Shown here one piece after another: positions 4,462-58,535 of a stretch of DNA of 64,000 nucleotides. The notes below the pieces were generated by a model. That model did not search any database and had not been told where the DNA came from. It saw only the letters and a list, made by a program, of their open reading frames with translations. Position 1 is the stretch's first letter, and every line of letters begins with the position of its first letter. The DNA comes from Patescibacteria group bacterium (lineage in GTDB: Bacteria > Patescibacteriota > Microgenomatia > Daviesbacterales > UBA10151): contig CALRFD010000003.1 in assembly GCA_943356485.1 (NCBI GenBank), forward strand, positions 7,702-71,701, given 5' to 3'. The position numbers and the translations under genes are program-made.

Positions 4462-5707
4462 TTATTGGCTTAATTTCAAAACAAAGATACCTCACAAATC
4501 TGGCGTTTATATTTATAAAGATAAGAATGGAGATATTCTTTATATCGGCAAAGCAATAGATCTATATCACCGGGTGGCCTCCTATTTTAACAGTAATGTT
4601 ACTCAAAAAACAGCTGCACTGGTTGAAAAAATTTCTGATATTCAAACCATAACCGTTGAATCTGAGCTTGAAGCCTTAATTTTAGAGGCAAATCTAATAA
4701 AAAAACATCTGCCGCCTTTTAATGTGCGGTTACTGGACGATAAAGACTATCTTTATATAGGAATAACAGATGAAGACTTTCCAAAGGTTAGTACTTTAAG
4801 AAGAATGGATCTAAAGAAGATGAAAAAATACTGGGGACCATTTCCTTCCAGCAGAACTGTAAAAAGTACTCTGAAGCAACTAAGAAAAGTCTTTCCTTGG
4901 TGTTCAGCCACACAAGGCGACGCCTTGCGTGCGTGTTTTTACTATCATCTGGGTCTATGTCCTGGTGCTTGTGTGGGCTTAATTTCAAAGCAGGATTATA
5001 ATAAAATTATCAGGAATTTTTCTAAATTTTTGGATGGTAGAAAAGAAGAGTTAGTGAAGGAGCTTACTGAACAGATGTTAAAGTCTTCTTCAAAACAGAA
5101 TTTTGAGCAGGCAGGGCGGATTAAAAAAATACTTGGGGGGATAAATTACATGACTCAAACAAACAGGGTAACATTATATCTTGAGAATCCTAACTTCTTG
5201 GAAGATGAAAATAATGAGGCTTTAAAACAGCTGAAAGAAGATTTGAATTTACCTAGTCTTCCGGAAAGAATTGAAGGGTATGATATTTCCAATATTTCCG
5301 GTAAAGAGGCTGTTGGATCAATGGTTGTTTTAACAAATGGCGAGATAGACAAATCCCAATATAGGAGATTTAAAATACATATTAGCGGTAAACCAAATGA
5401 CGTCGGTATGCATAAAGAAATGATAAGACGCCGTTTAAAGCACACTGAATGGAAATTCCCCGACTTGATAATAGTTGATGGGGGCTTAGGTCAAGTCCGC
5501 GGTGTTAACTATGAACTGCAAACTGCCAACTGTAAACTACCTGTATTTGGTCTGGCCAAAAGGATGGAGTGGTTATATCCCCCGGAAGGAGAAATCATAA
5601 AACTACCCAGGAAGAGTCTGTCTTTAAAACTTTTGCAGAAGTTAAGGGATGAATCCCACAGATTTGCAATTACCTATCACCGAAAGCTACGTGATAAGAT
5701 TAAGTAA
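4454..5707 (+). CDS. uvrC: UvrC-like excinuclease, short form (GIY-YIG plus UvrC endonuclease domain, no C-terminal HhH)
   Basis: GIY-YIG block GVYIYKDKNGDILYIGKAIDLYHRVASYF and C-terminal RNaseH-like EGYDISNISG region. It is 417 aa versus about 600 aa for canonical UvrC. The start overlaps the upstream gene's stop. Confidence 0.8.
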   Translation: MVNYWLNFKTKIPHKSGVYIYKDKNGDILYIGKAIDLYHRVASYFNSNVTQKTAALVEKISDIQTITVESELEALILEANLIKKHLPPFNVRLLDDKDYLYIGITDEDFPKVSTLRRMDLKKMKKYWGPFPSSRTVKSTLKQLRKVFPWCSATQGDALRACFYYHLGLCPGACVGLISKQDYNKIIRNFSKFLDGRKEELVKELTEQMLKSSSKQNFEQAGRIKKILGGINYMTQTNRVTLYLENPNFLEDENNEALKQLKEDLNLPSLPERIEGYDISNISGKEAVGSMVVLTNGEIDKSQYRRFKIHISGKPNDVGMHKEMIRRRLKHTEWKFPDLIIVDGGLGQVRGVNYELQTANCKLPVFGLAKRMEWLYPPEGEIIKLPRKSLSLKLLQKLRDESHRFAITYHRKLRDKIK

Positions 5708-10634: not shown

Positions 10635-10779
10635 ACTTTAAGAATATCACATAATATGTAAGTGTTCTTTCAGGGTTTTGCGTAAGTCAAAATCGGTGGT
10701 AAACTCCACGACCAGCCTTTGGCTGGATGAGCCGGTGTAACTCCGGCAGCGACCGTATAGTCGGGATGAAAGGAAGAAT

Positions 10780-11700
10780 ATGAAAAAACTAATATCCTTT
10801 GGTCCGCTATTTGTTGCCTTAGCAGCTATAATTTGGAGTTTTGATGGTTTGCTAAGACGCAGTTTATACTCACTCCCACCTTCAGTAGTGGTTTTTTATG
10901 AGCATCTGATTGGTTTTGCCATTCTTTTATTATTTTTCCCAAAATGGTGGCCTGATTTAAAAAAACTGACTAAAAAAGAGTGGTTAGCCATCTCTTTAGT
11001 CGCGCTTTTTTCAGGAGCTTTGGGGACAATTTTTTATACTGCGGCTTTAGGAAGAGTAAATTATATTCAGTTTTCCGTTGTTGTTTTACTGCAACAGCTT
11101 CAGCCTATTTGGGCCATATCTGCCGCGGCCATCATACTTAAAGAACGAGTTAATAAGAGATTTATCCTTTGGGCAGGAATAGCTTTAGTTGCCGCATATT
11201 TTATAAACTTTAAAGACCTGAACGTAAATTTTCAAACAGGTACAGGGACAGCGGTAGCAGGAGGATTAGCTCTTCTGGCAGGAGTTTTATGGGGCTCCTC
11301 AACAGCGATTAGTAAGTATGTTTTAAACAAGGTTTCTTTTTTGACTGCCACAGCTTTGCGGTTTGCCCTGGCTCCTTTTTTTGCCCTGGGATTTATTTTC
11401 TCAATGGGGCAATCTGCCGCTATTTTTCAAATTACGCAAGCGCAAATATGGACACTTTTATTAATAGCTTTTTCAACCGGGATGGTAGCCTTAGCTATAT
11501 ATTATTATGGTTTAAAAAAGACTCCGGCCAGGATTACGACCCTTTGTGAGTTGGTTTGGCCAGCCTCCGCAGTCTTTATAGATTATGTCTATTTTCACCA
11601 AAGCTATTCAATAACCCAGATTTTAGGAATAGTAGTTTTGCTTTTTGTGCTTTATCAAGTAGCCTGGAAGAAAACAGAACTCATTGACAAAAGGGACTAA
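10780..11700 (+). CDS. EamA/DMT-family transporter (about 10 TM)
   Basis: Two repeated roughly 5-TM halves. Composition typical of EamA. Confidence 0.65.
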   Translation: MKKLISFGPLFVALAAIIWSFDGLLRRSLYSLPPSVVVFYEHLIGFAILLLFFPKWWPDLKKLTKKEWLAISLVALFSGALGTIFYTAALGRVNYIQFSVVVLLQQLQPIWAISAAAIILKERVNKRFILWAGIALVAAYFINFKDLNVNFQTGTGTAVAGGLALLAGVLWGSSTAISKYVLNKVSFLTATALRFALAPFFALGFIFSMGQSAAIFQITQAQIWTLLLIAFSTGMVALAIYYYGLKKTPARITTLCELVWPASAVFIDYVYFHQSYSITQILGIVVLLFVLYQVAWKKTELIDKRD

Positions 11701-12420: not shown

Positions 12421-14189
12421 AAATCAATTTTTCTAATCCTAATATTTTTTGGGGTTACTTCAACTAATTCACTATCATCAATATATTCAATTGCCTGCTC
12501 CAGACCCATCATCTTTGGAGTATTAAAATGTTCAGATGTCCCTTCGCCGGAAGAGCGGTGGTTTGTTTGTTGTTTTTCTCTGCAAACGTTTACCCAAATA
12601 TCATCACCGCGCGAGTTTTGTCCGATGACCTGACCCTTATAAACCTCAAGTCCGGGGCCAACAAAAATTGTTCCTCGATCCTGTGCTCCAGTTAATGCGT
12701 AGAGTTTTGTTGATCCGGATTCATGAACCACTAAAGATCCATTATTCCTCTCAAACTTTCCGCCAACATCCTCTCTGTATTCAAAAAATGAGGATGAGAT
12801 AATTCCCATGCCTTTGGTATCGGTAACAAATTGAGATCTGTAACCAAAAAACTCTTTTGTGGCAATAATAAATTCCAGGACGACAATGCCATTATCAGCG
12901 TTCATGTCTAAAAGTTCTGCGTGTCGCAGACCCATTTTCTGCATAACAGAACCAGAGTATTCTTCAGGTACTTCAATCGCGACTTTCTCAAAAGGAGTCA
13001 TGGTTTTACCATTTTCGTGTTTTTCAATAACCTGCGGTCTGCCTACCTGGAATTCATAACCCTCCCGTCTCATGGTTTCAATTAGAATGGCTAAGTGCAA
13101 CTCTCCTCTACCTGATACAACCCACTCAGCTCCAGCAGATTCTACCTTTAAAGCCACATCAGCTTCTTGAGCCTTAAGTAAGCGGTCTTGGATCTGTCTG
13201 GCAGTTTTGTATTCACCCTCCCTGCCTGCAAGAGGTGAGGTATTTACTCCAAACCGCATTCTGACTGTAGATTCTTCAATGTCTAAAACAGGTAGCGCTA
13301 TTGGATTTATCGGATCTGCCAAAGTTTCACCAATTGTGATATCTGGAATTCCGGAAACCGCAATGATATCTCCGGCATGAGCCTGCGTAATATCAACTCT
13401 TTCCAGTCCTTCAAATCCCAAAAGCGAAGTCAGTCTGAATTTTTTAATTAATCCATCTCTGTTGATATGCGCAACATCCTGTCCGGCTTTTACCACTCCG
13501 GCATAAACTCTCCCTGTAGCAATTCTGCCCTTAAAATTATCATATGAAGTATTGGTAATAAGAATCTGCAAAGGTTTATCATCTTCTGCAATTGGGGCTG
13601 GAATATATTTGATGATCGCATCAAAAACAGGGGAGATATCAGTCATTTTAGACAAGTCTGGTTCCAGGCCGGCTTTTCCTTGTTTGCCTGAAGCGTAAAT
13701 GGTAGGGAAGTAGGCTGTTTCCTCGTCCGCACCAAGTTCTAAAAATAAATCAAAGGTCTTATTTATCACATATTCAATTCTGGCATCTGGCTTGTCTATC
13801 TTGTTTATAACCACGATAACTTTATGTCCTAACTCTAAGGCTTTTTTTAAAACAAATCGGGTTTGCGGCATTGGACCCTCTTTTGCATCAATTAAAAGCA
13901 GTACTCCGTCTGCCATTTTTAAGACCCTTTCTACCTCTCCTCCAAAATCAGCGTGTCCAGGGGTGTCTATAATATTAATTTTGGTGTCTTTATAGTGTAC
14001 AGATGCATTTTTCGAAAAGATAGTAATTCCTCTTTCTCTTTCTAAATCATTGCTGTCCATAATTAAATCTCCTTTTTCAGTTGCCTCCTTGGAGATTTTA
14101 GTTAAAGATTGACGAAGCAGAGCATCCACTAAAGTGGTTTTACCATGATCAACGTGGGCTATAATTGCAACATTTCGAATACTATTCAT
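12411..14189 (-). CDS. typA: Translational GTPase TypA/BipA
   Basis: G1 AHVDHGKTT, G3 DTPGHADF, G4 NKID. EF-G-like domain order. 592 aa. Confidence 0.95.
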   Translation of the reverse strand: MNSIRNVAIIAHVDHGKTTLVDALLRQSLTKISKEATEKGDLIMDSNDLERERGITIFSKNASVHYKDTKINIIDTPGHADFGGEVERVLKMADGVLLLIDAKEGPMPQTRFVLKKALELGHKVIVVINKIDKPDARIEYVINKTFDLFLELGADEETAYFPTIYASGKQGKAGLEPDLSKMTDISPVFDAIIKYIPAPIAEDDKPLQILITNTSYDNFKGRIATGRVYAGVVKAGQDVAHINRDGLIKKFRLTSLLGFEGLERVDITQAHAGDIIAVSGIPDITIGETLADPINPIALPVLDIEESTVRMRFGVNTSPLAGREGEYKTARQIQDRLLKAQEADVALKVESAGAEWVVSGRGELHLAILIETMRREGYEFQVGRPQVIEKHENGKTMTPFEKVAIEVPEEYSGSVMQKMGLRHAELLDMNADNGIVVLEFIIATKEFFGYRSQFVTDTKGMGIISSSFFEYREDVGGKFERNNGSLVVHESGSTKLYALTGAQDRGTIFVGPGLEVYKGQVIGQNSRGDDIWVNVCREKQQTNHRSSGEGTSEHFNTPKMMGLEQAIEYIDDSELVEVTPKNIRIRKIDLNG

Positions 14190-14610: not shown

Positions 14611-16350
14611 ATGAGAAAACAAGAGCATGTAAAATTTAACCAGTGGTTTGCAACAGCAATCTGCGGAAATGATATCTTAAGTTCCTGTCTTTATGTTTCC
14701 GGGATAGCCGTTGCTTTTGGAGGAATCTTTGCCCCGCTTATCTTAGGGGTTATTGCCTTAGTTCTTTTTATGTATAAATCAGTTTATACAGAAGTTGTAG
14801 AGGCATTGCCGATAAATGGAGGAGCATATAACTGTTTACTTAACAGCACAGACAAAACTATTGCGGCAATTGCAGGTGTAACTACAATACTGTCTTATAT
14901 TGCCACCTGCGTTTTGTCAGCCACAGTAAGTATTGCCTATCTGCATACGCTAATACCTGTTCCGATTATTCCTGTCACTATTTTCCTGCTTTTTCTTTTT
15001 GCAGTTTTAGTTATACTTGGCCTAAAAGATTCTTCAAAAATAGCTTTTGGTATATTTTGTCTACATATTTTTACATTGATAATTTTTGTCCTCCTTGGAT
15101 CTCTTTTTATCCTTAGCCATCATTCTTTTTTTATGGAAAATTTGATTAAGTCAAAGGAGATAATTCAATCAGGGGGTGGGGTCATTAAGGCTTTATTTTT
15201 TAGTTTTGCCGCTTCCCTTTTGGGAGTTTCCGGTTTTGAATCATCAGCAAACTTTGTTGAGGAGCAGGAAGAAGGAGTTTTTAGAAAAACTTTAAGGAAT
15301 ATGTTAATTGCTGTGGCGATCTTTAATCCTTTAATTGCCATAATTGTTTTAGGGCTCGCGCCTATTTCTACAATTATTGCGGCTAAAGATTTTCTATTGG
15401 CAGACCAGGCCTTACTAATGGGAGGCAAGTGGCTTCAGTACTTTATTGTTATTGATGCGGTTTTAGTTTTAGCAGGTGCAGTTTTAACTTCATTTATAGG
15501 CGTGAGCGGATTGGTTTATAGAATGGCGGCAGATGCCTGTTTGCCGGAATTTCTAACCAGGAAAAACAGCAGAGGTTCATATCCGATAATTATTATATTG
15601 TTTTTCCTGCTTTGTTCTTCTATTTTACTTTTAACACAAGGTAATCTTTTATCCCTGGCTGGAGTTTATACCATTGCTTTCCTTTCAGTTATGAGTTTAT
15701 TTGCTTTAGGGAATCTAATTTTAAGACAGACCAGAAGCGAGTTGAAAAGAACATACTCGGCACCGATTTTATTTGTAATTTTAGCCTTCTCAGCGACTTT
15801 TCTCGGGATTATCGGAAATATATTAATCGATAAAAACAATATAATTTATTTTTCTCTTTATTTTTTTCCGTCAGTACTTTTGGTTTTATTAATGGTATAT
15901 CGGGATCAGCTTCTTACATTGATTCTTAAGACAACGCCGGGTATAAAACCGTTGCATAAATTTATATTAAATCATTATGAGGATGTCACAAGCGGAAAAA
16001 TTATAGCTTTTGTAAACCATGCAAACCGTTTATATGAAATCTTAAACTATATACATCTAAACGAAACAGCTAAGAATGTAATTTTGGTACACTGCAGGAA
16101 TTGGGATAATAATGTAGACAAGGAGAGGTTTAAAGAGTTAAATGAGGCCTTGCCGTTTATAAATAAGGTAGGAATGTTTCCTAATCTGAGTGTAAGTTTG
16201 GTATATGAAAACGAACCATTTGGAACCGAGGCTATAAATAATATCTCAAAGAAATTTCGGGTTAGGAAAAATAGAATAATGATTGGTTCAATCCACCACT
16301 TTCACCCGTTTGAATATTCAGATCTGGGGGGAGTAAGGATAATATTTTAA
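14611..16350 (+). CDS. APC-superfamily amino acid permease with a roughly 150-aa C-terminal cytoplasmic extension
   Basis: About 12 TM segments followed by a soluble C-terminal region. Confidence 0.7.
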   Translation: MRKQEHVKFNQWFATAICGNDILSSCLYVSGIAVAFGGIFAPLILGVIALVLFMYKSVYTEVVEALPINGGAYNCLLNSTDKTIAAIAGVTTILSYIATCVLSATVSIAYLHTLIPVPIIPVTIFLLFLFAVLVILGLKDSSKIAFGIFCLHIFTLIIFVLLGSLFILSHHSFFMENLIKSKEIIQSGGGVIKALFFSFAASLLGVSGFESSANFVEEQEEGVFRKTLRNMLIAVAIFNPLIAIIVLGLAPISTIIAAKDFLLADQALLMGGKWLQYFIVIDAVLVLAGAVLTSFIGVSGLVYRMAADACLPEFLTRKNSRGSYPIIIILFFLLCSSILLLTQGNLLSLAGVYTIAFLSVMSLFALGNLILRQTRSELKRTYSAPILFVILAFSATFLGIIGNILIDKNNIIYFSLYFFPSVLLVLLMVYRDQLLTLILKTTPGIKPLHKFILNHYEDVTSGKIIAFVNHANRLYEILNYIHLNETAKNVILVHCRNWDNNVDKERFKELNEALPFINKVGMFPNLSVSLVYENEPFGTEAINNISKKFRVRKNRIMIGSIHHFHPFEYSDLGGVRIIF

Positions 16351-16378: not shown

Positions 16379-17548
16379 ATGTTTTCCCGTATTCCTAAAA
16401 ATGTTTTTTTATTAGGGCTGGTCAGTTTTTTTAATGATCTATCCAGCGAGATGATCTATCCCATTGTGCCTATTTTTTTAACAACGATCCTGCACACTTC
16501 AGTGCCGATTGTAGGGTTTATAGAAGGATTTGTGGAGGCAACAGCTGCTATAACCAAGTATCTGTTTGGAACCTACTCTGATTACTTGAGAAGGAGAAAG
16601 TTGTTTGTAGTTGGCGGATATTCTTTAAGTGCAGTCTCAAAAGTTCTAATCGGTTTGGCCTACGCTTGGCCAATGGTTTTAGTAGCCCGTTTTATTGATA
16701 GATTTGGCAAAGGCATGAGGACTGCAGTCAGGGATAGCTTACTTTTAGAGAATGCTACTGTGGAAAACAAAGGATTTATTTTTGGCTTTCACCGGGCTTT
16801 TGATTCGCTGGGTGCTGTTTTTGGCCCGCTTTTAGCCCTGGGGATTTTATATCTAATGAAAGATAACTTAAGGCAAACTTTTTTTATAGCCTTTATTCCG
16901 GCTACCGTAGCAGTAGTTTTACTGGTTTTCTTTGTTAAGGAAAAAAGAAAAATAGTAATTGAGGAAAAAAAAGAATTCATTAAAATTAACTGGAAAACTC
17001 TGCAGCCGAAGTTAAAACTTTTTTTAGCAGTTAGTTTTTTATTTTCTCTGGGAAACTCATCTGATGTATTTTTGCTTCTGTATGCGAGGAGCTTAGGTTT
17101 AAGTACTACCTTGGTTGTTTTAGCATATGTTTTATATAACGTTTCCCAAACTATATTTGCTACTCCTGCCGGCTCACTTTCAGATAAAATCGGCGCTAAA
17201 AAAGTTTTTGCAGGAGGCTTGGTAGTCTTTGCCTTAGTCTATTTTTCACTTGGAATTATAAAGGATCCGTTTTGGATGTGGTTAATTTTTCCTGTCTATG
17301 GGATTTACATTGCAGCTACAGATGGGATTTCTAAAGCCTATATTTCTGAGTTTATAGAAAAGCGCGAATCCGGGACTTTTTTTGGAGCATATTATACTTT
17401 AACAGCGGTAGGCACGTTCATTGCCTCGTTACTCGGAGGATTGCTTTGGAATGCTATTAATCCTCAGGCTACTTTCTTCTTTGGAGGAATAATGTCTCTT
17501 CTAGCTTTGTTAATTTTTGTCCTTTTCAACCGCAAAGCAATAATCTGA
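16379..17548 (+). CDS. MFS transporter
   Basis: 12-TM profile. GxxxDRxGKG-like motif in loop 2-3 (IDRFGKGMRTA). Confidence 0.75.
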   Translation: MFSRIPKNVFLLGLVSFFNDLSSEMIYPIVPIFLTTILHTSVPIVGFIEGFVEATAAITKYLFGTYSDYLRRRKLFVVGGYSLSAVSKVLIGLAYAWPMVLVARFIDRFGKGMRTAVRDSLLLENATVENKGFIFGFHRAFDSLGAVFGPLLALGILYLMKDNLRQTFFIAFIPATVAVVLLVFFVKEKRKIVIEEKKEFIKINWKTLQPKLKLFLAVSFLFSLGNSSDVFLLLYARSLGLSTTLVVLAYVLYNVSQTIFATPAGSLSDKIGAKKVFAGGLVVFALVYFSLGIIKDPFWMWLIFPVYGIYIAATDGISKAYISEFIEKRESGTFFGAYYTLTAVGTFIASLLGGLLWNAINPQATFFFGGIMSLLALLIFVLFNRKAII

Positions 17549-24309: not shown

Positions 24310-24330
24310 TTTTTTGCTCTGTTAAATAAG
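24310..24330 (+). repeat. 21-bp direct repeat TTTTTTGCTCTGTTAAATAAG, copy 1
   Basis: Perfect match to 30181-30201. Confidence 0.9.
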
Positions 24331-24348
24331 ATTGTAGTATTTCAAAAG

Positions 24349-24400
24349 GTCTAATCTCCCCAGGTGACCTATATTCTACACCCCCCAGGTGAGCTTATTT
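24349..24400 (+). repeat. REP-like family 2 copy (TCTAATCTCCCCAGGTGACCTATATTCTACACCCCCCAGGTGAGCTTA)
   Basis: Matches 31362-31412 over 48 bp with 3 mismatches. The core is shared with 41864-41898 and, inverted, with 41138-41170. Confidence 0.7.
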
Positions 24401-24432
24401 GCGGATTTAAGTTATATGCCATATACTTTTAA

Positions 24433-24732
24433 ATGAGCATGAATCCAGAAGCAACCTCACATTCTAATCCTGAACACCCAAAAGAATTAGCGTTAAGTCC
24501 TCAGGAAAAAAACAGGTTAATCGCTCATTTGGGAAGAGTGTATTCCAGAAGATATGATATTCAGGTTCTACCATCCCATGAACGTGGGGTTTGGGCTACT
24601 GGACTTGATCCAGAAACAAATATTGAGTTAGAGAAATATATGACTGGTCAAAGAGATAGCCTGGATGATTTGCCACCCGATGCTTTATCCCAAAAAAAAT
24701 TCTTTATGATGCAGAGTCAGCCCAGGGGATGA
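24433..24732 (+). CDS. N-terminal segment of the metallopeptidase/VWA protein, separated from the next ORF by a -1 frame change at an A8 tract
   Basis: The ORF ends 4 nt into the start of the 666-aa ORF. The downstream ORF's frame is open back to 24669, so one extra A in the 24692-24699 run fuses them: ...SQKK|ILYDAESAQGMSMDQ... Confidence 0.5.
   Translation: MSMNPEATSHSNPEHPKELALSPQEKNRLIAHLGRVYSRRYDIQVLPSHERGVWATGLDPETNIELEKYMTGQRDSLDDLPPDALSQKKFFMMQSQPRG
24693..24699 (+). other. A_AAA_AAA heptamer within an A8 run: candidate -1 programmed frameshift site or homopolymer indel
   Basis: In the ORF1 frame the codons are caA AAA AAA ttc. A -1 slip reads AAA AAA ATT CTT TAT and enters the HExxH-VWA ORF frame. 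Confidence 0.45.
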
Positions 24733-26729
24733 GTATGGATCAAATCTCTACTATTCTTCATCACGAAGCTGGTCATGCTAAATATACTGATTTCCGTTTA
24801 ATGATGGAGGGGCAAAAACAAGCTAAAGATGAAGGCTACCTGCCAACAAGTTTTTGGTTGATGTTTGAAGGAATAGAAGATCCAAGAGTCAATAGTTTAG
24901 AAGGCGAAGAGTCTCCGGCAATAGACCGCCAGATTAGAACTAACCAGGGGAAGGATCTGGAAGAAAGAATAACTGAAACACCCCTATCAAGCAGGCCGTT
25001 ATTATTACAATTTGCTTATAATTCTTCCCACTATTGGCTACACGGAAAAGGTATACCGGAGCTAGAGGATACTGATGTTGGCAGATTAGGTGAAGTTGCA
25101 AAGCCGTTACTGGAACAGTACTTTTTAAATACTGATGTAGACATAAGAAGGTTATTACAAAAACAAATTTGGGATATTGCAAAGGAGCTTGAAAAGAAAG
25201 ATATAGAAGATGAAGAAAAGCGTCAGATGGCTGAACGAAAACAAAGATCAAAACAGCAACAGGAAGAAGGACAATCAGGTGAGGGTCAATCCGGAACTCC
25301 CAATATCCCAGGAGGAGGAGAGCCGCGTCAGAATGCAGCTTCTGCGCAAGGAAGTAAACGTTTTATAGATCGTTTAAAGCAAGCAATCCTTGGTCGGCCA
25401 AATCAAAGTACATCTAACAACTCGGACAGTGGCTTTGAAAGTGACTCCTCGGAGGTGGGCGGCGAAGCAGGTCATCAAATTAGTAAGCCCTCCTTTGAAA
25501 AAAAACCAGAGAGGTTTGATCTGTCAAAACTCTCAGATGAAGAGCTCCAAGATATTAAAGATGCAATAGACCAGCTACCCCCTGAAGAACGCGCAGAACT
25601 TACTAAAGTAGCCAGAATAACTGTAGACGAAATACAAAAAGCAGCCCTGGAGGAAGAGCTGGGAAAAACAATGAAACTGGAGAGAAATAAAAAAACAGGT
25701 GAATATGAGATCAGACCGCAAACTGTAGATGAAAAAGCGCAAAAGCAGGCGGAGCATGATTATAAGGAGGCTTTATCGGAGGTTGAAGCAGAGGAGCAGG
25801 CTGAGTATGAAAGAGAAGAAGCAGAAAGAAGACATCAGGAAGGGTTACTTAAGCAATTGGAACAAGCCAGAAAAGAAAAAATAGAAATGGAAAAAGCAGG
25901 TTTTAATGAGGACGAGCAGGATAAATACTTACTTTACCAGTCCTTAGAAGATGCAATGTATTCCTATGTCAGAAATTTTAAACAAGCCATCGGAAGAATC
26001 ATTCCAAGAAGAAAAGAGCCAATATATGAAGGCGGTTATTTTAACGGGTCTAAGCTTGACAGAAGGGAGTTAATCCGCAAAGCTCCTTTGGGTGATGAGC
26101 AGTTTCATATGAGACAGGTAGAAAAACCAACCGGTGAACCCAGATTATTTATTGGGTTACTCATTGATAATAGCGGCTCAATGCAGGGAAGAAAAATGGA
26201 GGAGGCAAGAAAAGCTACAATCTTTTTTGCCAGGGTTTGTAAGGACATGGGTATTCCATTTATGGCAACTGCATTTGGAGATAAGGCAGAGGTTATAAAG
26301 GAATTCAGACAGGATTTTGATGACAGGTCTCAAAGAATAAAGCCTAAATTGATTGAAGCAACCGAAGCTCTTGGCGGAAGTACTAATCTTCATGCAGGAA
26401 TTAAGATGACTATTGAAGCTATGAATGAGCAAAGAAGAAGGCTTAGGGATTCTCATGGTTTAATCCTGGTTATTACAGACGGTGAAGCAAATAAGGGGCT
26501 TAGCGGAGATGCTCTAGGCGATTATATAAAAGAAAATCAAGGCAGACTCACCTTTAAAGGATTTGGACTATCAGCTGGGGAGCAGGAGAGAGCTAAGATT
26601 CAAACTTATTTAAACCTTTATTTTGGTGAAAGTAACTGCGCATATCCTGAAAACTTTGAGGATTTACCAGACGAAGCATTTAGACTGCTTCGGATTAACC
26701 TGATTCAGCTCCAAAGGTTCTTGTCATAA
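24729..26729 (+). CDS. HExxH metallopeptidase-like N-domain, acidic/coiled-coil linker and C-terminal von Willebrand factor A (MIDAS) domain protein (DUF2201/CoxE-like class)
   Basis: ILHHEAGHAKY (HExxH). EK/Q-rich low-complexity middle. VWA with MIDAS residues DNSGS...GGST...ITDGEAN. Confidence 0.7.
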   Translation: MSMDQISTILHHEAGHAKYTDFRLMMEGQKQAKDEGYLPTSFWLMFEGIEDPRVNSLEGEESPAIDRQIRTNQGKDLEERITETPLSSRPLLLQFAYNSSHYWLHGKGIPELEDTDVGRLGEVAKPLLEQYFLNTDVDIRRLLQKQIWDIAKELEKKDIEDEEKRQMAERKQRSKQQQEEGQSGEGQSGTPNIPGGGEPRQNAASAQGSKRFIDRLKQAILGRPNQSTSNNSDSGFESDSSEVGGEAGHQISKPSFEKKPERFDLSKLSDEELQDIKDAIDQLPPEERAELTKVARITVDEIQKAALEEELGKTMKLERNKKTGEYEIRPQTVDEKAQKQAEHDYKEALSEVEAEEQAEYEREEAERRHQEGLLKQLEQARKEKIEMEKAGFNEDEQDKYLLYQSLEDAMYSYVRNFKQAIGRIIPRRKEPIYEGGYFNGSKLDRRELIRKAPLGDEQFHMRQVEKPTGEPRLFIGLLIDNSGSMQGRKMEEARKATIFFARVCKDMGIPFMATAFGDKAEVIKEFRQDFDDRSQRIKPKLIEATEALGGSTNLHAGIKMTIEAMNEQRRRLRDSHGLILVITDGEANKGLSGDALGDYIKENQGRLTFKGFGLSAGEQERAKIQTYLNLYFGESNCAYPENFEDLPDEAFRLLRINLIQLQRFLS

Positions 26730-26804
26730 TTTTAACCTTAATGAAAGCCGCTAAAGCGTATTGAGAGATTGATTTATATTCAATAAATCTGGTACGTTAA
26801 ATAT

Positions 26805-29800
26805 ATGGCTGATAATAGCGGGGTAGAAAGAAATACCTATGAAGCAAGAAATTTATTGGCTCCCGGCAATCCAATTTCTCAACTTGTAGAAATACGGGAT
26901 TTAGGTACAGATAGATTTAGAGAGCAGTTTAAAGGTGAAGTTGTAGATGTTAAAAAAATAGGAGAAGTAGTTGCAATTTTAGAAAAGCAAAGTGATAAAT
27001 ATGAATTAGCTGTTTTCAATAAACAAGCTACACCGATAAGAGTTCCTCTTGATCCTACTGTAGTAGAAATTCTTGCTTCTTCCAGAGGAGATTATATAGA
27101 TGTTAGTTCTAAGCCTGATGTTTCTACAGAAAAATTGCAGAATATTTTAGGAAGGATGGGGTTTCACCTAAGAGATTTTAACCCGGTTGTAGAAACTTGG
27201 AGTGAATTATTCTTCAATTGTCGTTCGATTGGCTTCCCCGACCTTTATGTCAGGAGTCGTGTTTTAAATAGGGGAGCTAATATTAGTATACCAATGGGTG
27301 ATTGGAATCTGGAAGTAATGGAGGATCAAAATAAGCAGGCAACATTTGTTTTAGGAGTAGGTGGTAGCTATTTTGAAATGTACCCAAATGGACCGTTCAA
27401 AAAGCTTCCTCTTTCAGGGGAGGAGTTTGCGAAGCTAGAAGAGTTGGATAAAGATTTACCAGGAGATCTACAAATTGTGAAGGGTTATAATTTATTTCAT
27501 ATTACAAATAATACAGGACTCCAACAAGGATACTCTGGTTTGAGTCCTACTCAGGATCCCTCTAATCCTGGTATTTTATATTTTATAAATTCAGGTCAAG
27601 TTTACAGTTTGGATACTAAGGGTGTCCTGGATAGAACAACTTACCCTGTTTCTGAATCTCAGATTAAGATACAAGATCCTCAGGAGTTAGCGATTGATCC
27701 AAATGGGAATTTTTTAATTATTCGATCTTCTGATAATAAGCTGTCTATTGTCGATAAGGAAACAGGAGATATTGCCGAAGTTGTTGAAGATGTTAAAGGA
27801 TTTTTAACCGTTGATAAATTGGGGGGTATTGTTTACCTTGATACTCAAGATAAACTACGCGAAGTTCAGGCTAATTTTCAAACTATTCCTCCTGGAGGCA
27901 GTAAATTGCTACTAGAGAAAAAAGAGGCGCAGTTAAGAGAACAACAGGAAAGGTTTGCTAATTTAGAACTGGGAAAAGTAACGGGAAAAAGTCGGGCCGC
28001 AATATCAGAAGTAGATGTGGCTAATACTCTAAGAGAAACTATTTCAAGACAGGTTCTTGAACCTATCAATTCTGCAACAAATCCAGTAGTTTTAGAAGAT
28101 ATTTTAGATAGGCTGCAGGGATTAAAAGTAGATCCTGCCAATCAGGCATATCAGGAAGTTATTGATGAGTTTATTACTCAAGCAAGAGGTAAACTGAGTG
28201 GAATTAGAACTGCAGAATTTAGTACCCAACTTGACTCTTATAAACTGGCTTTAGATGAAGTTAAAAGCGTAGGTGATACTATTGGTTTGGATGAACAATT
28301 TGCCAGGATTTTAGAATTAAGGCAAAAACTTGATGTAGTTGATCCTCAACAAAGAAGAGAGGTTGAACAAAGATTGCGTACTCTTCAAACCCGGAAAGAC
28401 ACTTTGAATAATCAGTATCAGGGTGAGTTAATAGCAGCTGTAAACGAAGCTATACCTCAGATTGAACAACTGATAGAAGAAACCGGTTCGCCTCAGGAGC
28501 TTGCTTATTTTTCAACTTCAGTGCAAGCGCAACAGTTTGAAATGATGCTTGCCAATATTAGAGATCCACAAGTAAGAAAGGAGTTGCGTGATAAATATAG
28601 CGCAATGAGAACAAAGCAAAGAGGAAAATTAGAAGAGGGAAACAGACAGCTGGAAGAGCAGGACAGACAAAGATGGGCGCAAGTGGTAGATGAAGCCCGT
28701 GAGGATTTAGCTTCCTTGAGAGAACAGATTGAGCAATTATCAGACTCTGGTGAAGTAGACCGCTTTGGTAGAAATCCACTAGTAACAGCTTGGAGAGCTA
28801 AGCTTTTTGCCCTCCCTCCGGAATTAAGGGAAATAGAAGAAAAGAGATTAGAGATTATCCTAGGCGCCCGTAAAAAGGACATGGAGCATCGAAAAGAGTT
28901 AGGAGCGGTTGGTGAAACAGGGGAACTTAAGTTTGGAAATGCTACTTTTCCAATATTTAAAGAACCTCCAAGAATTTGGCAACCCAAGCTTTTACCAAGG
29001 CCAGGCGGTTTTGCGCAGTGGGCAGATTTAATATTTGAGGATTCTCAGGGAAAAATTTGGAGGCCGGCTAAGGATCACGATCTTATTGTCAGCACTGATT
29101 TAAATGATGAAAGGACCAGGATATTAATTGAGCAATATCATAAACAGGCGGATGAATATTTTAGAGGTATTAAAAGAAGAGTTCCTGAATTTGATGAGCA
29201 CTGGAGAATTACAGACTATAATATGGAAAAATTAGAAGAGGTGGTTGAAGCCTTAAATTTACAACTTGCCAACCATAGGGGAATTTTGATTATGCAGGGT
29301 GAGGCTGGTACAGGAAAAAATGTATTAGTGGATATGTTGGCTAATCTGTCTGATCGGGAAGTTATAACTGTTGCCTGTAATGAAAACAGTACGAAGGAAG
29401 ATCTAACATACGATTTTGATTATGATCCAAAAACGGGCACTGTCAGATGGCCTTCACGGCTTTTAGAAGGTTTACAAACTCCTGGCACAATTATCCTTTT
29501 TGATGAAATTAATGCTCTTAAACCAGGCATTTCGAAAATGTTAAATTCACTTTTCGATTATAGGAGAAGATTACTCTTTACCTCAGGAGGAACAGCAAAA
29601 GAAATTATTACTGATCCTACGGTTCTTTTCCTGGGTACTATGAATCCACAGAATTATGGTGGAGTAAACAGGTTATCCCCTGAAGTAAAATCCAGAGCCA
29701 GAGTAGTTGATATTGACTATCCGCCATTTGAGGTGGCAAGAAATGGGAGAACATATTACAGGAGTGATGAAGCAGAAATGTTAGCGGCTTATATGGATGG

Positions 29801-30167
29801 CCTCTCTGATTTTAAGCAGCCAGAAGTTAGGCAAATCTGGCATTACTTAATAAATAGAGATACGACAAATGGAGCAGACAGGATGCTATCGGGTAATCCT
29901 CAGATAGAAACAGATGTAAGGCGAGTATATGATGTCATAAGAGTGGCTAATAGACTTAGGGAGATGTATACCGCTTACCAAGTTGGTGATTCAAATGAAC
30001 CAATGGATTTTCCAACATCCTTGCGGGAAGTAACTGATATTGTTATGGAAATGAACCACCGCCAGGGTGTCAAACCAATGATTAAAAGGGTTATTGTTCC
30101 AAAGATAGATGATAGAAGGCAGAAAAAATTAGTTGAGCAAACCATAGATGCAGTTCTACCGGCTTAG
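26805..30167 (+). CDS. Giant MoxR-like AAA+ ATPase (AAA_5-type) with a roughly 800-aa N-terminal beta-rich plus coiled-coil extension
   Basis: Walker A GEAGTGKN, Walker B IILFDEIN, sensor-1 LGTMNPQN, MoxR-like LSPEVKSRARVV. Residues about 100-330 are beta-strand-like repeats and about 360-800 are heptad-rich. Confidence 0.7.
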   Translation: MADNSGVERNTYEARNLLAPGNPISQLVEIRDLGTDRFREQFKGEVVDVKKIGEVVAILEKQSDKYELAVFNKQATPIRVPLDPTVVEILASSRGDYIDVSSKPDVSTEKLQNILGRMGFHLRDFNPVVETWSELFFNCRSIGFPDLYVRSRVLNRGANISIPMGDWNLEVMEDQNKQATFVLGVGGSYFEMYPNGPFKKLPLSGEEFAKLEELDKDLPGDLQIVKGYNLFHITNNTGLQQGYSGLSPTQDPSNPGILYFINSGQVYSLDTKGVLDRTTYPVSESQIKIQDPQELAIDPNGNFLIIRSSDNKLSIVDKETGDIAEVVEDVKGFLTVDKLGGIVYLDTQDKLREVQANFQTIPPGGSKLLLEKKEAQLREQQERFANLELGKVTGKSRAAISEVDVANTLRETISRQVLEPINSATNPVVLEDILDRLQGLKVDPANQAYQEVIDEFITQARGKLSGIRTAEFSTQLDSYKLALDEVKSVGDTIGLDEQFARILELRQKLDVVDPQQRREVEQRLRTLQTRKDTLNNQYQGELIAAVNEAIPQIEQLIEETGSPQELAYFSTSVQAQQFEMMLANIRDPQVRKELRDKYSAMRTKQRGKLEEGNRQLEEQDRQRWAQVVDEAREDLASLREQIEQLSDSGEVDRFGRNPLVTAWRAKLFALPPELREIEEKRLEIILGARKKDMEHRKELGAVGETGELKFGNATFPIFKEPPRIWQPKLLPRPGGFAQWADLIFEDSQGKIWRPAKDHDLIVSTDLNDERTRILIEQYHKQADEYFRGIKRRVPEFDEHWRITDYNMEKLEEVVEALNLQLANHRGILIMQGEAGTGKNVLVDMLANLSDREVITVACNENSTKEDLTYDFDYDPKTGTVRWPSRLLEGLQTPGTIILFDEINALKPGISKMLNSLFDYRRRLLFTSGGTAKEIITDPTVLFLGTMNPQNYGGVNRLSPEVKSRARVVDIDYPPFEVARNGRTYYRSDEAEMLAAYMDGLSDFKQPEVRQIWHYLINRDTTNGADRMLSGNPQIETDVRRVYDVIRVANRLREMYTAYQVGDSNEPMDFPTSLREVTDIVMEMNHRQGVKPMIKRVIVPKIDDRRQKKLVEQTIDAVLPA

Positions 30168-30478
30168 TCAAGCAAATCTGTTTTTTGCTCTGTTAAATAA
30201 GGCCTTAGTTCCTCGAGGGGTAATCTGGAAAGGGTGGCACAAATCTGGTCGATAGAAACAATTTTGTCCAGAATGAAAACCTTATCATCTAATCTGGTAG
30301 GATCATCGTCTGTTAATACTCTGTTATGATCAACAACGCTCTGAAGGAATTCAACTGTGCCAACAGTTATTACATATGGCTTATCGCCGCGCACTAAGTG
30401 GATATCCTGGGCTATCACCGCTAGGTTTTGATCCTTGATTTCACCTATTAAATAACAAGACTGATCTGCTTCTTTCAT
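30164..30478 (-). CDS. Hypothetical protein (104 aa), translationally coupled to the upstream 286-aa ORF
   Basis: ATGA start/stop overlap with 30475-31335. Confidence 0.4.
   Translation of the reverse strand: MKEADQSCYLIGEIKDQNLAVIAQDIHLVRGDKPYVITVGTVEFLQSVVDHNRVLTDDDPTRLDDKVFILDKIVSIDQICATLSRLPLEELRPYLTEQKTDLLD
30181..30201 (+). repeat. 21-bp direct repeat TTTTTTGCTCTGTTAAATAAG, copy 2 (encodes the C-terminus YLTEQK of the minus-strand 104-aa ORF)
   Basis: Perfect match to 24310-24330. Confidence 0.9.
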
Positions 30479-31335
30479 AATCTGCTTTTTCCTTTGATAA
30501 TAGACCTGGGTTGGGTTGTCAAAACTGCTAACACCTCATCCTGTTTCGCTTTATCACAAACTGCGATCCGTATTATAACAGGAGTGTCGTTAACTCTGCC
30601 AAATTCTATAAAATAGACTCGTTGTCCGGCAACATTACCCAGATAGCAGATCGGTCTGTTTGTAATTTGATTTTTTATTGTTTTAATAAAGCTTGATTTT
30701 CTTTTAATAAAATCAGGTAGATAGGTATAAAGTAAAGTATCTGCATGTTTGTTTTGCTCCCTGGTTAATTGGGCTGCGACTTGCGCTAGCTTGCCCCTTA
30801 CAATGCTGCCATAATAAAATTTCTGTCCTTCTGTATCAGATAATGTAACCATTGCCAAAGGGATCTCCTCTGTTTTTTTTAACCATGGCAAATCCATATT
30901 ACTTATCAAAAGCCTTTGATCAGACATTCTGGTTTCCTTAAAACCTGAAGGCAGGCCTTTTTTAAACTCAGCCCGGCTTCTCTTTTTGGATAAATCATCA
31001 GGTTCAGCAACTTTTTGAACGGATTCCTCAACTGTAGGTTGAATTGATGGTTTCGGGGCTACCGGCTTTTCAATTACTGTGACTGGCACGCTTTCGTTTT
31101 TTTGCTGACTACTCTCCCGGGTATCTTCAACCAGTCTACCGGCTAATGATCTCTCAAGTGCCCCTATTGCGAGTCTTCTTTCAGCTAACTCGCGTACCCT
31201 TTTTTGTTCGGAGGTTTCCTTTATAACCTGCTTTGGTTGCCTTGGCTCATCCGGCATCTTGTCTAAAATGGCTCTTATAGTAAAAGATCCTGCGCTAGGT
31301 TTTCCTGGATTCCCGCCTTCTCTCTGCTCACTCAT
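30475..31335 (-). CDS. Hypothetical protein (286 aa) with a Pro/Glu/Lys-rich N-terminal half and a globular C-terminal half
   Basis: ORF with clear low-complexity and globular partitions. No motifs recognised. Confidence 0.4.
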   Translation of the reverse strand: MSEQREGGNPGKPSAGSFTIRAILDKMPDEPRQPKQVIKETSEQKRVRELAERRLAIGALERSLAGRLVEDTRESSQQKNESVPVTVIEKPVAPKPSIQPTVEESVQKVAEPDDLSKKRSRAEFKKGLPSGFKETRMSDQRLLISNMDLPWLKKTEEIPLAMVTLSDTEGQKFYYGSIVRGKLAQVAAQLTREQNKHADTLLYTYLPDFIKRKSSFIKTIKNQITNRPICYLGNVAGQRVYFIEFGRVNDTPVIIRIAVCDKAKQDEVLAVLTTQPRSIIKGKSRL

Positions 31336-31361
31336 AAAAATATTATAGCATCTTTTATACA

Positions 31362-31412
31362 GGGATCTAATCTCCCTAGGTGTCCTAAATTCTACACCCC
31401 CCAGGTGAGCTT
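31362..31412 (+). repeat. REP-like family 2 copy
   Basis: GGGATCTAATCTCCCTAGGTGTCCTAAATTCTACACCCCCCAGGTGAGCTTA. Confidence 0.7.
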
Positions 31413-31587
31413 ACAGGTGAGATTAGTCTTGCAAATGCCTTGCGGCCTCACAGGGCGATTTAGAACTTTTATACTGCCACAAAAGTTTTAGTCCAATACT
31501 CTGTATAGGCAGGCCACATAGGTAACACTTATGCCTAAACGTATATATGGCCTGGCTACATATAAAACAGTAAATTTTTGGAACGTC

Positions 31588-32570: not shown

Positions 32571-32641
32571 TGGAGCATCTTTAGTGAAACTAAAAGGATG
32601 GGCTATTTTTTAAGTAAGCATCAGAGGAAACTGAAATTTGC

Positions 32642-32715
32642 GCCCCTGGAGGGACTTGAACCCCCAAAACCTCTTCGTCCGAAGCGAAGCGCTCTATCCA
32701 TTGAGCTACAGGGGC
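32642..32715 (-). tRNA. tRNA-Arg (anticodon TCG)
   Basis: Reverse complement reads GCCCCTGTAGCTCAATGGATAGAGCGCTTCGCTTCGGACGAAGAGG...GGTTCAAGTCCCTCCAGGGGCG. Acceptor GCCCCTG/CAGGGGC. Anticodon stem CTTCG/CGAAG with loop CTTCGGA. Confidence 0.8.
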
Positions 32716-33140
32716 ATAATTTTCTTATGCCAACCAAATTGTATCGATGTTTTACGGCGATGACAATTTGCGCATCTTACCTGGCATTTTTCTATTTCCT
32801 TTTTAACATCTAACAATTTTTTATCCCTTCCGACTGAAGAGATTGTAAAAGTCTTGTCCCTTATATGATCAAATTCTAATACAATTGGATCTTTTTCTCC
32901 ACAATCAACACAAGAATGACTAGATAAATAACTCCAAATATATATTTTAATCTCCCTTCTAATCATTTGATTTCTTCTTTGAGCCTTTTGCAAATAATAT
33001 TCTCTATTTTTTTCGTAGTGTGAGCGTATATATAGTCGGCTGCAATCCTTGCAGTGATATTGTCTTAATCCTTTTGATTGGTTTTTAAAATTGAACTCAG
33101 TTATAGATTTTTGTTTTCTACAGCGACTGCATCTTCTCAT
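32706..33140 (-). CDS. HNH endonuclease-family protein with Zn-ribbon
   Basis: CSRC...CKDC Zn-ribbon, then VLEFDHIRDK ... CANCHRRKT (H-N-H). The 3' end abuts or overlaps the tRNA-Arg 5' end by about 10 nt. Confidence 0.55.
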   Translation of the reverse strand: MRRCSRCRKQKSITEFNFKNQSKGLRQYHCKDCSRLYIRSHYEKNREYYLQKAQRRNQMIRREIKIYIWSYLSSHSCVDCGEKDPIVLEFDHIRDKTFTISSVGRDKKLLDVKKEIEKCQVRCANCHRRKTSIQFGWHKKIMPL

Positions 33141-41082: not shown

Positions 41083-41137
41083 TAAGTAGTTATTTTAACT
41101 CTTTTCAGCCTTAAATAAAATCCACCAAACTCTTACT

Positions 41138-41170
41138 CACCTGGGGGGTGTATTAGCTTGACACCTAGGG
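41138..41170. repeat. REP-like family 2 copy, inverted orientation
   Basis: Reverse complement CCCTAGGTGTCAAGCTAATACACCCCCCAGGTG. Confidence 0.65.
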
Positions 41171-41192
41171 AATTTTGTTATATTTTTAATAT

Positions 41193-58339: not shown

Positions 58340-58397
58340 AGCGAGGCCAGTTATTCAAGTAGTTTATTGCTAAACTCGGCGGCTCACCGTCCTTTGT

Positions 58398-58535
58398 CCC
58401 CGATAACTTGTTGTAAATGTATTATACCACAACTTGTATCAAAAACTCATCTCTAAATCAGAATACGTAATTTTGCGTGGGTGGGTGGGCAGATTATAAT
58501 CCTGAGCAGGGCCGAAGGACTTAGTTTGTACCCAG
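58398..58535 (+). repeat. Dispersed repeat, copy R5 (full length, about 138 bp)
   Basis: Combines the 5' arm shared with R3 and the core shared with R2 and R4. Confidence 0.8.
58473..58500 (+). promoter_or_regulatory. Sigma70-like promoter inside repeat R5: TTGCGT, 16-nt spacer, TATAAT
   Basis: Read directly. It faces rightward into the 3' end of the minus-strand gene 58545-59075, so it could make an antisense or small RNA. Confidence 0.3.

Follow-up and report, generated by a model that had tools for sequence, protein, structure and literature searches.

What kind of system is formed by two co-oriented genes of a Patescibacteria genome, one encoding a protein with an HExxH motif and a von Willebrand factor A (VWA) domain and the other a MoxR-type ATPase of atypical length, and did they arrive as a mobile module? 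The question is raised by the interval 24310–31412 of a 64,000-nucleotide stretch of contig CALRFD010000003.1 (assembly GCA_943356485.1; the whole stretch is called the window hereafter), which an initial annotation made from the letters alone had flagged as a repeat-bounded and possibly undescribed system. The list of open reading frames (ORFs) gives plus-strand ORFs at 24433–24732, 24729–26729 and 26805–30167 (1120 aa), and minus-strand ORFs at 30164–30478 (104 aa) and 30475–31335 (286 aa); all the genes and motifs that had been reported were found at their coordinates. As judged from sequence comparison, the pair is a real, conserved and uncharacterised two-gene system, predicted to be a MoxR-AAA+/VWA ATP-driven protein-remodelling machine of Patescibacteria (the candidate phyla radiation, CPR). 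The architecture of this MoxR/VWA pair has not been described before.

A conserved two-gene system

Loci with relatives of the pair, some of them obtained by a scan of species-representative genomes followed by local hidden Markov model (HMM) searches, are designated here by L numbers. The VWA and ATPase genes are adjacent and co-oriented in 15 of the 15 distinct Patescibacteria/Oligoflexia loci that carry a full-length relative, which answers in the affirmative the proposed check of whether they travel together. The pair is found in Davies-, Curtiss- and Amesbacteria (Microgenomates), in a Gracilibacteria genome, in a Peregrinibacteria metagenome-assembled genome (MAG), where the gene order is reversed, and in two MAGs labelled Oligoflexia/Bdellovibrionales. 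There is a single copy per contig, with 50–65% identity across candidate-phylum-level lineages. No third gene is shared across the 15 loci, whose flanks differ at each, and no client operon (nor, cbb, cob/bch), metalloenzyme or cofactor gene is linked to the pair at the loci examined.

Database searches returned 36 relatives of the ATPase (E ≤ 0.001; 42–77% identity), all of them uncharacterised and, where named, from the Microgenomates group and Daviesbacteria, and 78 relatives of the VWA protein. A full-database search with the N-terminal 800 aa of the ATPase yielded 76 cluster representatives, with identities down to ~20%; because about 50 of them are 1050–1230 aa long, the long architecture is that of a sizeable family. 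The HExxH and MIDAS (metal ion-dependent adhesion site) motifs are invariant across the family, in agreement with the VWA-MoxR two-gene system that had been proposed. Its description as new also holds: no family in Pfam, NCBIfam, PADLOC or the PDB covers the HExxH domain or the N-terminus of the ATPase, and the literature searched contains no account of a MoxR/VWA pair in Patescibacteria, nor of such an extension on a MoxR ATPase.

A MoxR-type ATPase with a long N-terminal arm

The C-terminal part of the 1120-aa protein is a MoxR-class AAA+ (ATPases associated with various activities of the cell) module. The Pfam family AAA_5 matches residues 828–964 with 77.3 bits against a cut-off of 22 and, together with the Pfam VWA matches of the partner, confirms by HMM the two assignments made at the outset. 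An AlphaFold2 (AF2) model was built with 33 homologues (mean predicted local distance difference test, pLDDT, of 78). When its AAA+ part was compared with the PDB by Foldseek, NorQ and CbbQ came first (E = 1e-10, TMt 0.66–0.73); the ATPase family profile run against PDB sequences found CbbQ and NorQ only, and the isolated module also matches several Midasin AAA domains. Residues E901, N947, R964 and R1052 are invariant in alignments A1 and A3 (33 and 35 sequences, respectively), and two hairpins of the model, 872–881 and 922–935, are read from its secondary-structure string as the putative helix-2 insert and pre-sensor-1 hairpins. The ATPase also matches phrog_249, annotated as porphyrin biosynthesis.

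The Walker A motif is G[ED][AT]GxGK[N/D] family-wide, with invariant Gly and Lys. The residue after the Lys is Asn in 31 of the 33 close relatives and Asn or Asp in all 35 distant ones, while the same position is Thr (GKT) in CbbQ, NorQ and Midasin, and Ser or Thr in every characterised relative.

Compact MoxR proteins, consisting of the module and its lid, measure ~260–350 aa, a size that the 1120-aa ATPase does not share; members of the long family span 1050–1230 aa. In the ATPase described here ~800 aa precede the AAA+ module. The atypical N-terminal extension of about this length noticed initially is therefore borne out, and the AF2 model resolves it into a beta-rich region followed by long helices. 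For the N-terminal part, Foldseek returned the clathrin terminal-domain beta-propeller and propeller-plus-solenoid proteins, and the propeller-like region gives repeat-type matches to multi-blade proteins. The helical stalk that follows is common to the distant relatives and to proteins of the Aquificaceae. Pairwise identity among the same 33 ATPases is 70–86% in the AAA+ module and ~65% in the stalk, and drops to 14–28% in residues ~101–220. This hypervariable patch in the propeller-like region is the strongest hint, suggestive in nature, of a diversifying recognition surface; its low identity could reflect diversifying selection or relaxed constraint.

The HExxH/VWA partner

The overlapping ORFs 24433–24732 and 24729–26729 are the two halves of one gene. 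L006 (ENA ERZ27280317), an independent assembly of the same organism whose identity with the window is 99.995% across 21,196 bp, has TTTT where the window has TTT (24684–24686), and this 1-nt indel splits the gene. Because the gene is intact in L006, where the 765-aa protein reads …PPDAFIPKKILYDAE… in a frame that fits the family consensus …LPxExFxPKQILYDE…, and because its homologues are single ORFs of 740–830 aa, the split is an error of assembly or else a null allele at strain level, and not a programmed event. A programmed −1 frameshift at the A8 run (24692–24699) was ruled out, as one extra preceding T in L006 restores the frame. The domains first attributed to this protein are thus all present, but the single intact ORF exists in L006 and not here.

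The AF2 model of the VWA protein was made on a homologue, P0038 (69% identical; 41-sequence alignment, pLDDT 80). It comprises a mostly helical N-domain (residues 19–273), a disordered Q/G/E-rich stretch (275–367, pLDDT <50), a helical part (379–531) and the VWA domain (538–775). The HExxH segment is the best-conserved part of the protein, with 80% identity, and the low-complexity part of the linker has 35%. The motif is followed, 33 residues on, by an invariant E-D-P; H, E, H and E-D-P do not vary in the 41 sequences or in alignment A4, down to 28% identity, which gives H107, E108, H111 and E145 (P0038 numbering) as invariant candidates for metal ligands and catalysis. In the model, strands 40–43, 51–53 and 85–88 precede the HExxH helix (98–114) and a helix carrying the Glu (134–154), all at pLDDT ~90, and this predicted order is that expected of a minimal gluzincin. 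From these sequence features, the HExxH domain is a probable zinc protease.

Searches for known relatives of the domain returned little. Four N-domains gave no Pfam match to the N-domain at E ≤ 10, the N-domain profile run against PDB sequences produced noise only, and a match to HtpX (E = 1.1) covers the motif alone; in fold searches with the whole VWA-protein model the match lists were filled by VWA hits. The sole matches of the N-domain profile are unannotated Patescibacteria proteins from Moranii-, Falkow- and Yonathbacteria. Membership in DUF2201/CoxE, the label given initially, has to be dropped, with no match to PF13203, PF09967 or PF05762 (E ≤ 0.1 for the full protein, E ≤ 10 for four N-domains). 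L055, L063 and L068 were rejected as DUF2201-type comparators: their weak genome hits are sigma-54 activators.

The Pfam families VWA, VWA_2 and VWA_3 match residues 476–627 of the 666-aa ORF, and the MIDAS residues (DNSGS, the T of GGSTN and the D of ITDG) are invariant in the family. The top matches of the VWA domain in a Foldseek-type fold search are the MIDAS domains of MDN1 and Rea1, so that its nearest structural neighbours are AAA+-coupled MIDAS domains and not adhesin or integrin VWAs. This C-terminal MIDAS VWA is closest to those of Midasin and NorD. A weak HMM likeness to known VWA partners was also detected (CobT_C, E = 0.0026; TIGR02442, E = 7e-4), far below the family cut-offs.

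Distant relatives

The order HExxH protein, CobT_C-type VWA protein, AAA_5 ATPase is kept in distant relatives in which the first two are separate proteins (L194 and L197). L194:7500–17206 encodes an HExxH protein of 401 aa, a VWA protein with CobT_C and an AAA_5 ATPase of 245 aa as called; the gene calls look fragmented, possibly by long-read errors, and an alternative genetic code was ruled out (GC content 0.56; table 25 does not join the ORFs). The AAA_5 genes of L194 lie within a 2.76-kb tandem duplication that adjoins a diversity-generating retroelement (DGR), with bAvd at 15802–16086, a reverse transcriptase at 16581–17153 and a template repeat at 15653–15767. There are two variable repeats, 12716–12830 and 15270–15384, and every difference between template and variable repeats falls on a template adenine. 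This shows that a binding domain diversified in a programmed manner can be linked with relatives of the system. L197:6148–10524 encodes a 367-aa HExxH protein, a 270-aa CobT_C VWA protein, a 76-aa ORF and a 614-aa AAA_5 ATPase.

Relatives of the ATPase of ~940 aa occur in the Aquificaceae (Aquifex, Thermocrinis, Hydrogenobacter and others; L016–L053, e.g. L037:6408–9215). They have the propeller motif, the stalk, AAA_5 and a GDAGVGKN P-loop, and lie in a housekeeping region of conserved gene order that includes lipoate ligase, RNase G, BamD and LapA-type genes. In the Oligoflexia MAG L014, a fusion of a pentapeptide-repeat protein and a classical AAA ATPase that has AAA_lid_6 (2550–4703) is encoded just upstream of the pair and is itself preceded by a TelA-like gene.

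Relatives on mobile or viral DNA were also searched for. The ATPase arm has no match in phages, plasmids or viral contigs; the full ATPase alignment gives a weak, AAA-only match to viral contigs, and the VWA protein a generic VWA match to phages. In PADLOC the VWA protein has no match and the ATPase finds only P-loop fragments at E ≥ 0.003.

Proposed mechanism

We lean towards the view that the pair is an ATP-gated, client-specific metalloprotease or remodeller. On the model of NorQ-NorD, CbbQ-CbbO and Rea1, six AAA+ modules would assemble into a hexameric ring. The VWA domain would dock on this ring, its extension entering the pore and its C-terminal helix touching the ring, a mode of docking taken from the NorQD cryo-EM complex (PMC13036017). 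The MIDAS ion would capture an acidic residue of the client while ATP turnover pulls or twists the linker. The variable propeller arm of the ATPase would select the client, as the input, and the zincin domain of the VWA subunit would act on it, as the output.

Several points weigh against this reading. Ring formation, docking and proteolysis are all inferred, the zincin fold of the HExxH domain is a prediction that fold searches did not confirm, and no peptidase HMM of Pfam matches that domain at E ≤ 10. In Ras, the corresponding exchange of Ser for Asn makes the binding of Mg2+ and GTP weaker, and a GK[N/D] motor may therefore be more switch-like; with an Asn/Asp P-loop, nucleotide may be handled slowly or in the manner of a switch, and the motor may not be processive. 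In the Aquificaceae relatives the ATPase gene has no VWA gene beside it, so that arm plus motor can exist without this partner, at least within one locus. In this assembly the VWA gene carries a frameshift, and in L071 (12630–16093) the ATPase gene is split into ORFs of 402 and 742 aa, a second interrupted gene in the system that may be due either to assembly error or to decay. The putative regulatory motif upstream of the pair, described below, is drawn from three copies only. Between L071 and the window proteins, identity is 65% for the VWA protein and 77% for the ATPase fragment.

Repeats around the pair

Two kinds of repeat flank the pair, as had been reported: a direct repeat of 48 nt with 45 of 48 positions identical (copies a and b) and an exact 21-mer. 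Both are far above chance, as none of 100 shuffles gave two matches. The 48-nt motif has a third, diverged copy (c) with an identical core upstream of an operon encoding a membrane fusion protein (MFP), an ATP-binding cassette (ABC) protein and FtsX. The core common to the three copies is bipartite, CCCyAGGTGwC and TACACCCCCCAGGTGAG separated by N9–10. All three copies are intergenic and co-oriented with the gene downstream; copy b also lies 31–78 nt upstream of the divergent 286-aa gene. The motif is non-palindromic and forms no RNA structure beyond that of shuffled controls (folding z = 0.16, −0.23 and 0.62). The name REP (repetitive extragenic palindromic) that it had received is therefore inappropriate. 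Its arrangement suggests that the 48-nt element is probably a shared operator/promoter cis-regulatory motif of at least three operons, and the third copy points to a small regulon of which the VWA-ATPase pair would be a member. A scan of metagenomes for the core, in which at least 120 stretches matched, revealed no further true copies; all were chance matches that lacked the upstream half-site or the right GC content.

The second copy of the 21-mer encodes the last residues of the 104-aa ORF, and reading through the first copy would give an alternative end of the same length. The exact pair that had been described as the boundary of a segment thus exists, although its second copy falls within the 3′ end of the 104-aa ORF instead of leaving that gene outside. 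The two 21-mers are a true duplication, and a local rearrangement may have placed the VWA-ATPase pair between purD, the upstream neighbour of the VWA gene, and the 104-aa gene. We also considered that the left repeats are an internally deleted second copy of 30181–31413, but the stretch of 35 nt that separates the 21-mer from the 48-nt core aligns weakly, which does not sit easily with identities of 21/21 and 45/48 on its two sides.

Alternative readings

That the pair is an acquired island, with the 21-nt and/or 48-nt repeats as ends resembling att sites or target-site duplications and with or without the minus-strand genes, is in our judgement very unlikely. The 21-mers do bracket the pair and its upstream region (spacing 5871 nt), their match is not due to chance, the same-length end offered by copy 1 would fit a former purD/104-aa junction, a tRNA-Arg and the ORF of an HNH endonuclease are found 2.5 kb downstream, and the location of the pair varies between genomes. 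Several findings speak against an island of this kind. No ORF in 24310–31413 has a recombinase, transposase or integrase match in Pfam, NCBIfam or PHROG, and none stands between or beside the repeats; GC content is flat, at 0.37–0.42 inside and outside the flagged region; and the phage, plasmid and viral searches above gave no relatives. The 48-nt element, non-palindromic, recurs upstream of the unrelated MFP-ABC operon, which does not bear out the initial inference from repeats to acquisition. Moreover, among 10 other loci the only flanking repeat of 14 nt or more is one 17-mer in L009, and in metagenome contigs of the Joint Genome Institute (JGI) the 21-mer is absent, with neither extra copies nor an empty site. 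The 104- and 286-aa genes, which the initial annotation placed within the outer repeats, are not part of the system; they have no homologues at the other loci. The repeats are features of this genome and not the ends of a module or mobile element.

Two further readings concern what the pair does. A conflict or sensing role is possible, and we hold it as a doubtful alternative: the propeller arm would sense an invader- or host-derived protein and the MoxR/VWA core would activate the zincin effector, resulting in immunity, an abortive response or control of host interaction in episymbionts, with the same mechanical core as in the client-specific protease. The hypervariable segment inside an otherwise strongly conserved ATPase speaks for it, as does the genomic position of the pair, different in every genome examined, with several flanks rich in genes of toxin-antitoxin, defence-like or mobile type: Gp49/HTH, DUF3800, NYN and ART in L009, PIN, MerR and an integrase in L072, Fic and Bro-N in L007, and an rve integrase and a serine-recombinase-type gene in L197; the DGR next to L194 is bona fide, with two variable repeats, and MoxR-vWA systems with propellers and peptidases have precedents in conflict (PMC7159879; PMC13622651). 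Against these stand the lack of a PADLOC match, of a conserved third component and of a canonical effector at the loci, an architecture unlike all four Kaur-Aravind ternary classes, and plain housekeeping flanks at about half of the loci, the window included. Conservation and copy number across candidate-phylum lineages fit vertical inheritance, the Aquificaceae relatives are syntenic core genes, and relaxed constraint could account for residues 101–220. Rather unlikely is the more specific idea of a surveillance machine, in which a diversifying propeller arm and a GK[N/D] nucleotide-gated switch would unleash the tethered zincin on a foreign or host protein; equally so would be its corollary that the distant relatives swapped the propeller for DGR-diversified binding domains. 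If true, it would define a new class of two-component AAA+ immune or host-interaction sensor, distinct from STAND/Avs and the Kaur-Aravind ternary systems. We consider improbable a chaperone for metal insertion or cofactors, comparable to CobS-CobT, BchI-BchD, NorQ-NorD or CoxD-CoxE, in which HExxH…E would hold a metal and there would be no protease. The nearest relatives are indeed chelatase and metal-insertion pairs (CbbQ/NorQ, the weak CobT_C and TIGR02442 likenesses, phrog_249), the split distant relatives have CobT_C-type VWA proteins, and the linker layout resembles that of NorD and BchD (PMC13036017). The invariant catalytic-base Glu of HExxH, however, is expected for hydrolysis and is not needed for simple metal binding, none of the loci has a linked gene for a client metalloenzyme or for a cofactor pathway, and known metal-insertion pairs lack a large variable propeller arm.

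Features of the locus and neighbouring genes

The coordinates of the features discussed are collected in Table 1.

Table 1 Positions of repeats, genes, domains and motifs in the window; residue numbers are those of the 1120-aa ATPase
Feature	Position	Strand	Remarks
48-nt motif, copy a	24350–24397	+	36–83 nt upstream of VWA gene start
48-nt motif, copy b	31366–31413	+	201–248 nt upstream of 318-aa gene (31614, +)
48-nt motif, copy c	41125–41178	−	Diverged, core identical; ~45–95 nt upstream of MFP-ABC-FtsX operon (41082, −)
21-mer, copy 1	24310–24330	+	Exact; purD-VWA intergenic region
21-mer, copy 2	30181–30201	+	Exact; 14 nt past ATPase stop, within last 13 codons of 104-aa minus-strand ORF
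HExxH-linker-VWA(MIDAS) gene	24433–26729	+	765 aa as read in L006; homologues are single ORFs
Zincin-like N-terminal domain	24433–25250	+	Three short strands, HExxH helix, helix with EDPRxN (predicted)
HEAGH	24762–24776	+	Motif in N-terminal domain
EDPRVN	24876–24893	+	Motif in N-terminal domain
Linker	25251–26030	+	Q/G/E/K-rich low-complexity stretch, then long helices; P0038 model, composition
VWA domain	26031–26729	+	Complete MIDAS and conserved C-terminal helix
MIDAS DNSGS	26166–26180	+	
MIDAS T in GGSTN	26373–26387	+	
MIDAS D in ITDGE	26472–26486	+	
MoxR-class AAA+ ATPase gene	26805–30167	+	1120 aa; Pfam, AF2 model mean pLDDT 78
Beta-propeller-like region	26892–27884	+	Residues ~30–360; ~24 strands in model
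Hypervariable segment	27105–27464	+	Residues ~101–220; low pairwise identity
YVTN/NHL-like blade motif DPNGNF	27696–27713	+	In propeller-like region
Helical/coiled-coil stalk	27897–28904	+	Residues ~365–700 (~330 aa); model helices 365–698
Small beta domain	28917–29099	+	Residues ~705–765; model strands 707–763, before AAA+ module
AAA+ module (AAA_5) and lid	29202–30164	+	Residues 800–1120 in model
Walker A GEAGTGKN	29298–29321	+	Asn instead of Ser/Thr
Walker B IILFDEIN	29490–29513	+	
Sensor-1 GTMNP (LGTMNPQN)	29631–29654	+	
KSR arginine (LSPEVKSR)	29673–29696	+	

The neighbouring genes of 104, 286, 318 and 400 aa have no homologues at the other loci and no match in Pfam, NCBIfam, PADLOC or PHROG; the first three lie between the ATPase gene and a tRNA-Arg(TCG) gene (32640–32715), likewise without detectable homologues or family matches. 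The 3′ part of this tRNA gene overlaps by 10 nt an HNH endonuclease ORF at 32706–33140 (minus strand; phrog_2255, E = 3e-32), and the two together span 32640–33140 (minus strand) of the window. A scan of the region for sigma-70 promoters and terminators performed no better than shuffled sequences. Two RNA elements of Rfam were found elsewhere in the window: an FMN riboswitch (89.5 bits) at 10662–10781 (plus strand), immediately upstream of an ORF whose start is at 10780, and a DUF3800-II RNA motif (54.4 bits) at 58345–58414 (minus strand). The 17-mer of L009, TCTTGTGGGATAGTCGG, is located at 7002 and 15012 of that locus; the first copy precedes the VWA gene by ~0.5 kb and the second follows the ATPase gene by ~1.6 kb.

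Comparison with known systems

The closest characterised counterparts are NorQ-NorD and CbbQ-CbbO. Their AAA_5 module is the best match per domain in both sequence and fold, their genes are adjacent as here, and they share the C-terminal MIDAS VWA that follows a long linker and ends in a conserved helix. However, NorQ and CbbQ are proteins of ~260–280 aa with a GKT Walker A, whereas the ATPase described here has 1120 aa, an arm of ~800 aa and GK[N/D]; NorD and CbbO lack an HExxH domain, which the VWA partner here carries at its N-terminus; and the pair, whose hosts are Patescibacteria, has no linked client operon such as nor or cbb.

Midasin/Rea1 is related through both components: the AAA_5 module matches several Midasin AAA domains, the VWA domain has its best structural matches in the MDN1/Rea1 MIDAS domains, and a low-complexity acidic or Q-rich region precedes the MIDAS in both. 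The Patescibacteria pair looks like a "split" version of the eukaryotic protein, which is a single chain of ~4900 aa with six fused AAA modules, in contrast to one AAA module and a MIDAS on a separate protein. Midasin has neither an HExxH domain nor a propeller, and no evidence ties the pair to ribosome assembly. To CobS-CobT and its phage homologues the likeness consists of weak HMM similarity and of the clear CobT_C VWA in the distant split relatives; the scores are far below the family cut-offs, there are no CobN or cobalamin genes, and both proteins have other N-terminal domains.

The MoxR-vWA ternary conflict systems of Kaur, Burroughs, Iyer and Aravind comprise VMAP, iSTAND, FtsH and beta-propeller classes. 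What defines them is a third protein that is conserved, and their effector domains are C-terminal to the vWA or on VMAP (PMC7159879). They resemble the pair in combining a MoxR and vWA core with a propeller, a peptidase-type domain and a rapidly diverging region. Here, by contrast, there are two genes only, the propeller is fused to the N-terminus of the ATPase and the HExxH domain is N-terminal to the vWA; no third component (VMAP, iSTAND, FtsH or a TPR/propeller protein) is shared between the loci examined, the phyletic range differs, and PADLOC gives no match. In the DUF2201 (PF13203 and PF09967)/CoxE proteins an HExxH domain also precedes the VWA domain, next to an AAA_5 ATPase, but the VWA protein here is about twice as long, with a long linker, and its partner ATPase ~4 times longer.

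Three features have not been seen together in characterised MoxR systems, namely a large arm for recognising the target on the motor, a probable protease on the MIDAS adaptor and, throughout the family, Asn/Asp in Walker A. Patescibacteria have genomes of ~1 Mb in which much of the conserved gene content is unexplained. The operon, at ~5.7 kb, takes up ~0.5% of such a genome, and because it is kept at 50–65% amino-acid identity across candidate-phylum lineages it is almost certainly important to these episymbionts. It is small enough for heterologous expression and cryo-EM, could show how MoxR/VWA systems couple ATP to an enzymatic output, and could serve to find out whether machines of this kind are employed by CPR bacteria in defence, in host interaction or in the maturation of proteins. 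MoxR/VWA pairs being very diverse, this one is not categorically new, yet it is an unknown that is conserved, sizeable and tractable, in a bacterial radiation that is poorly understood.

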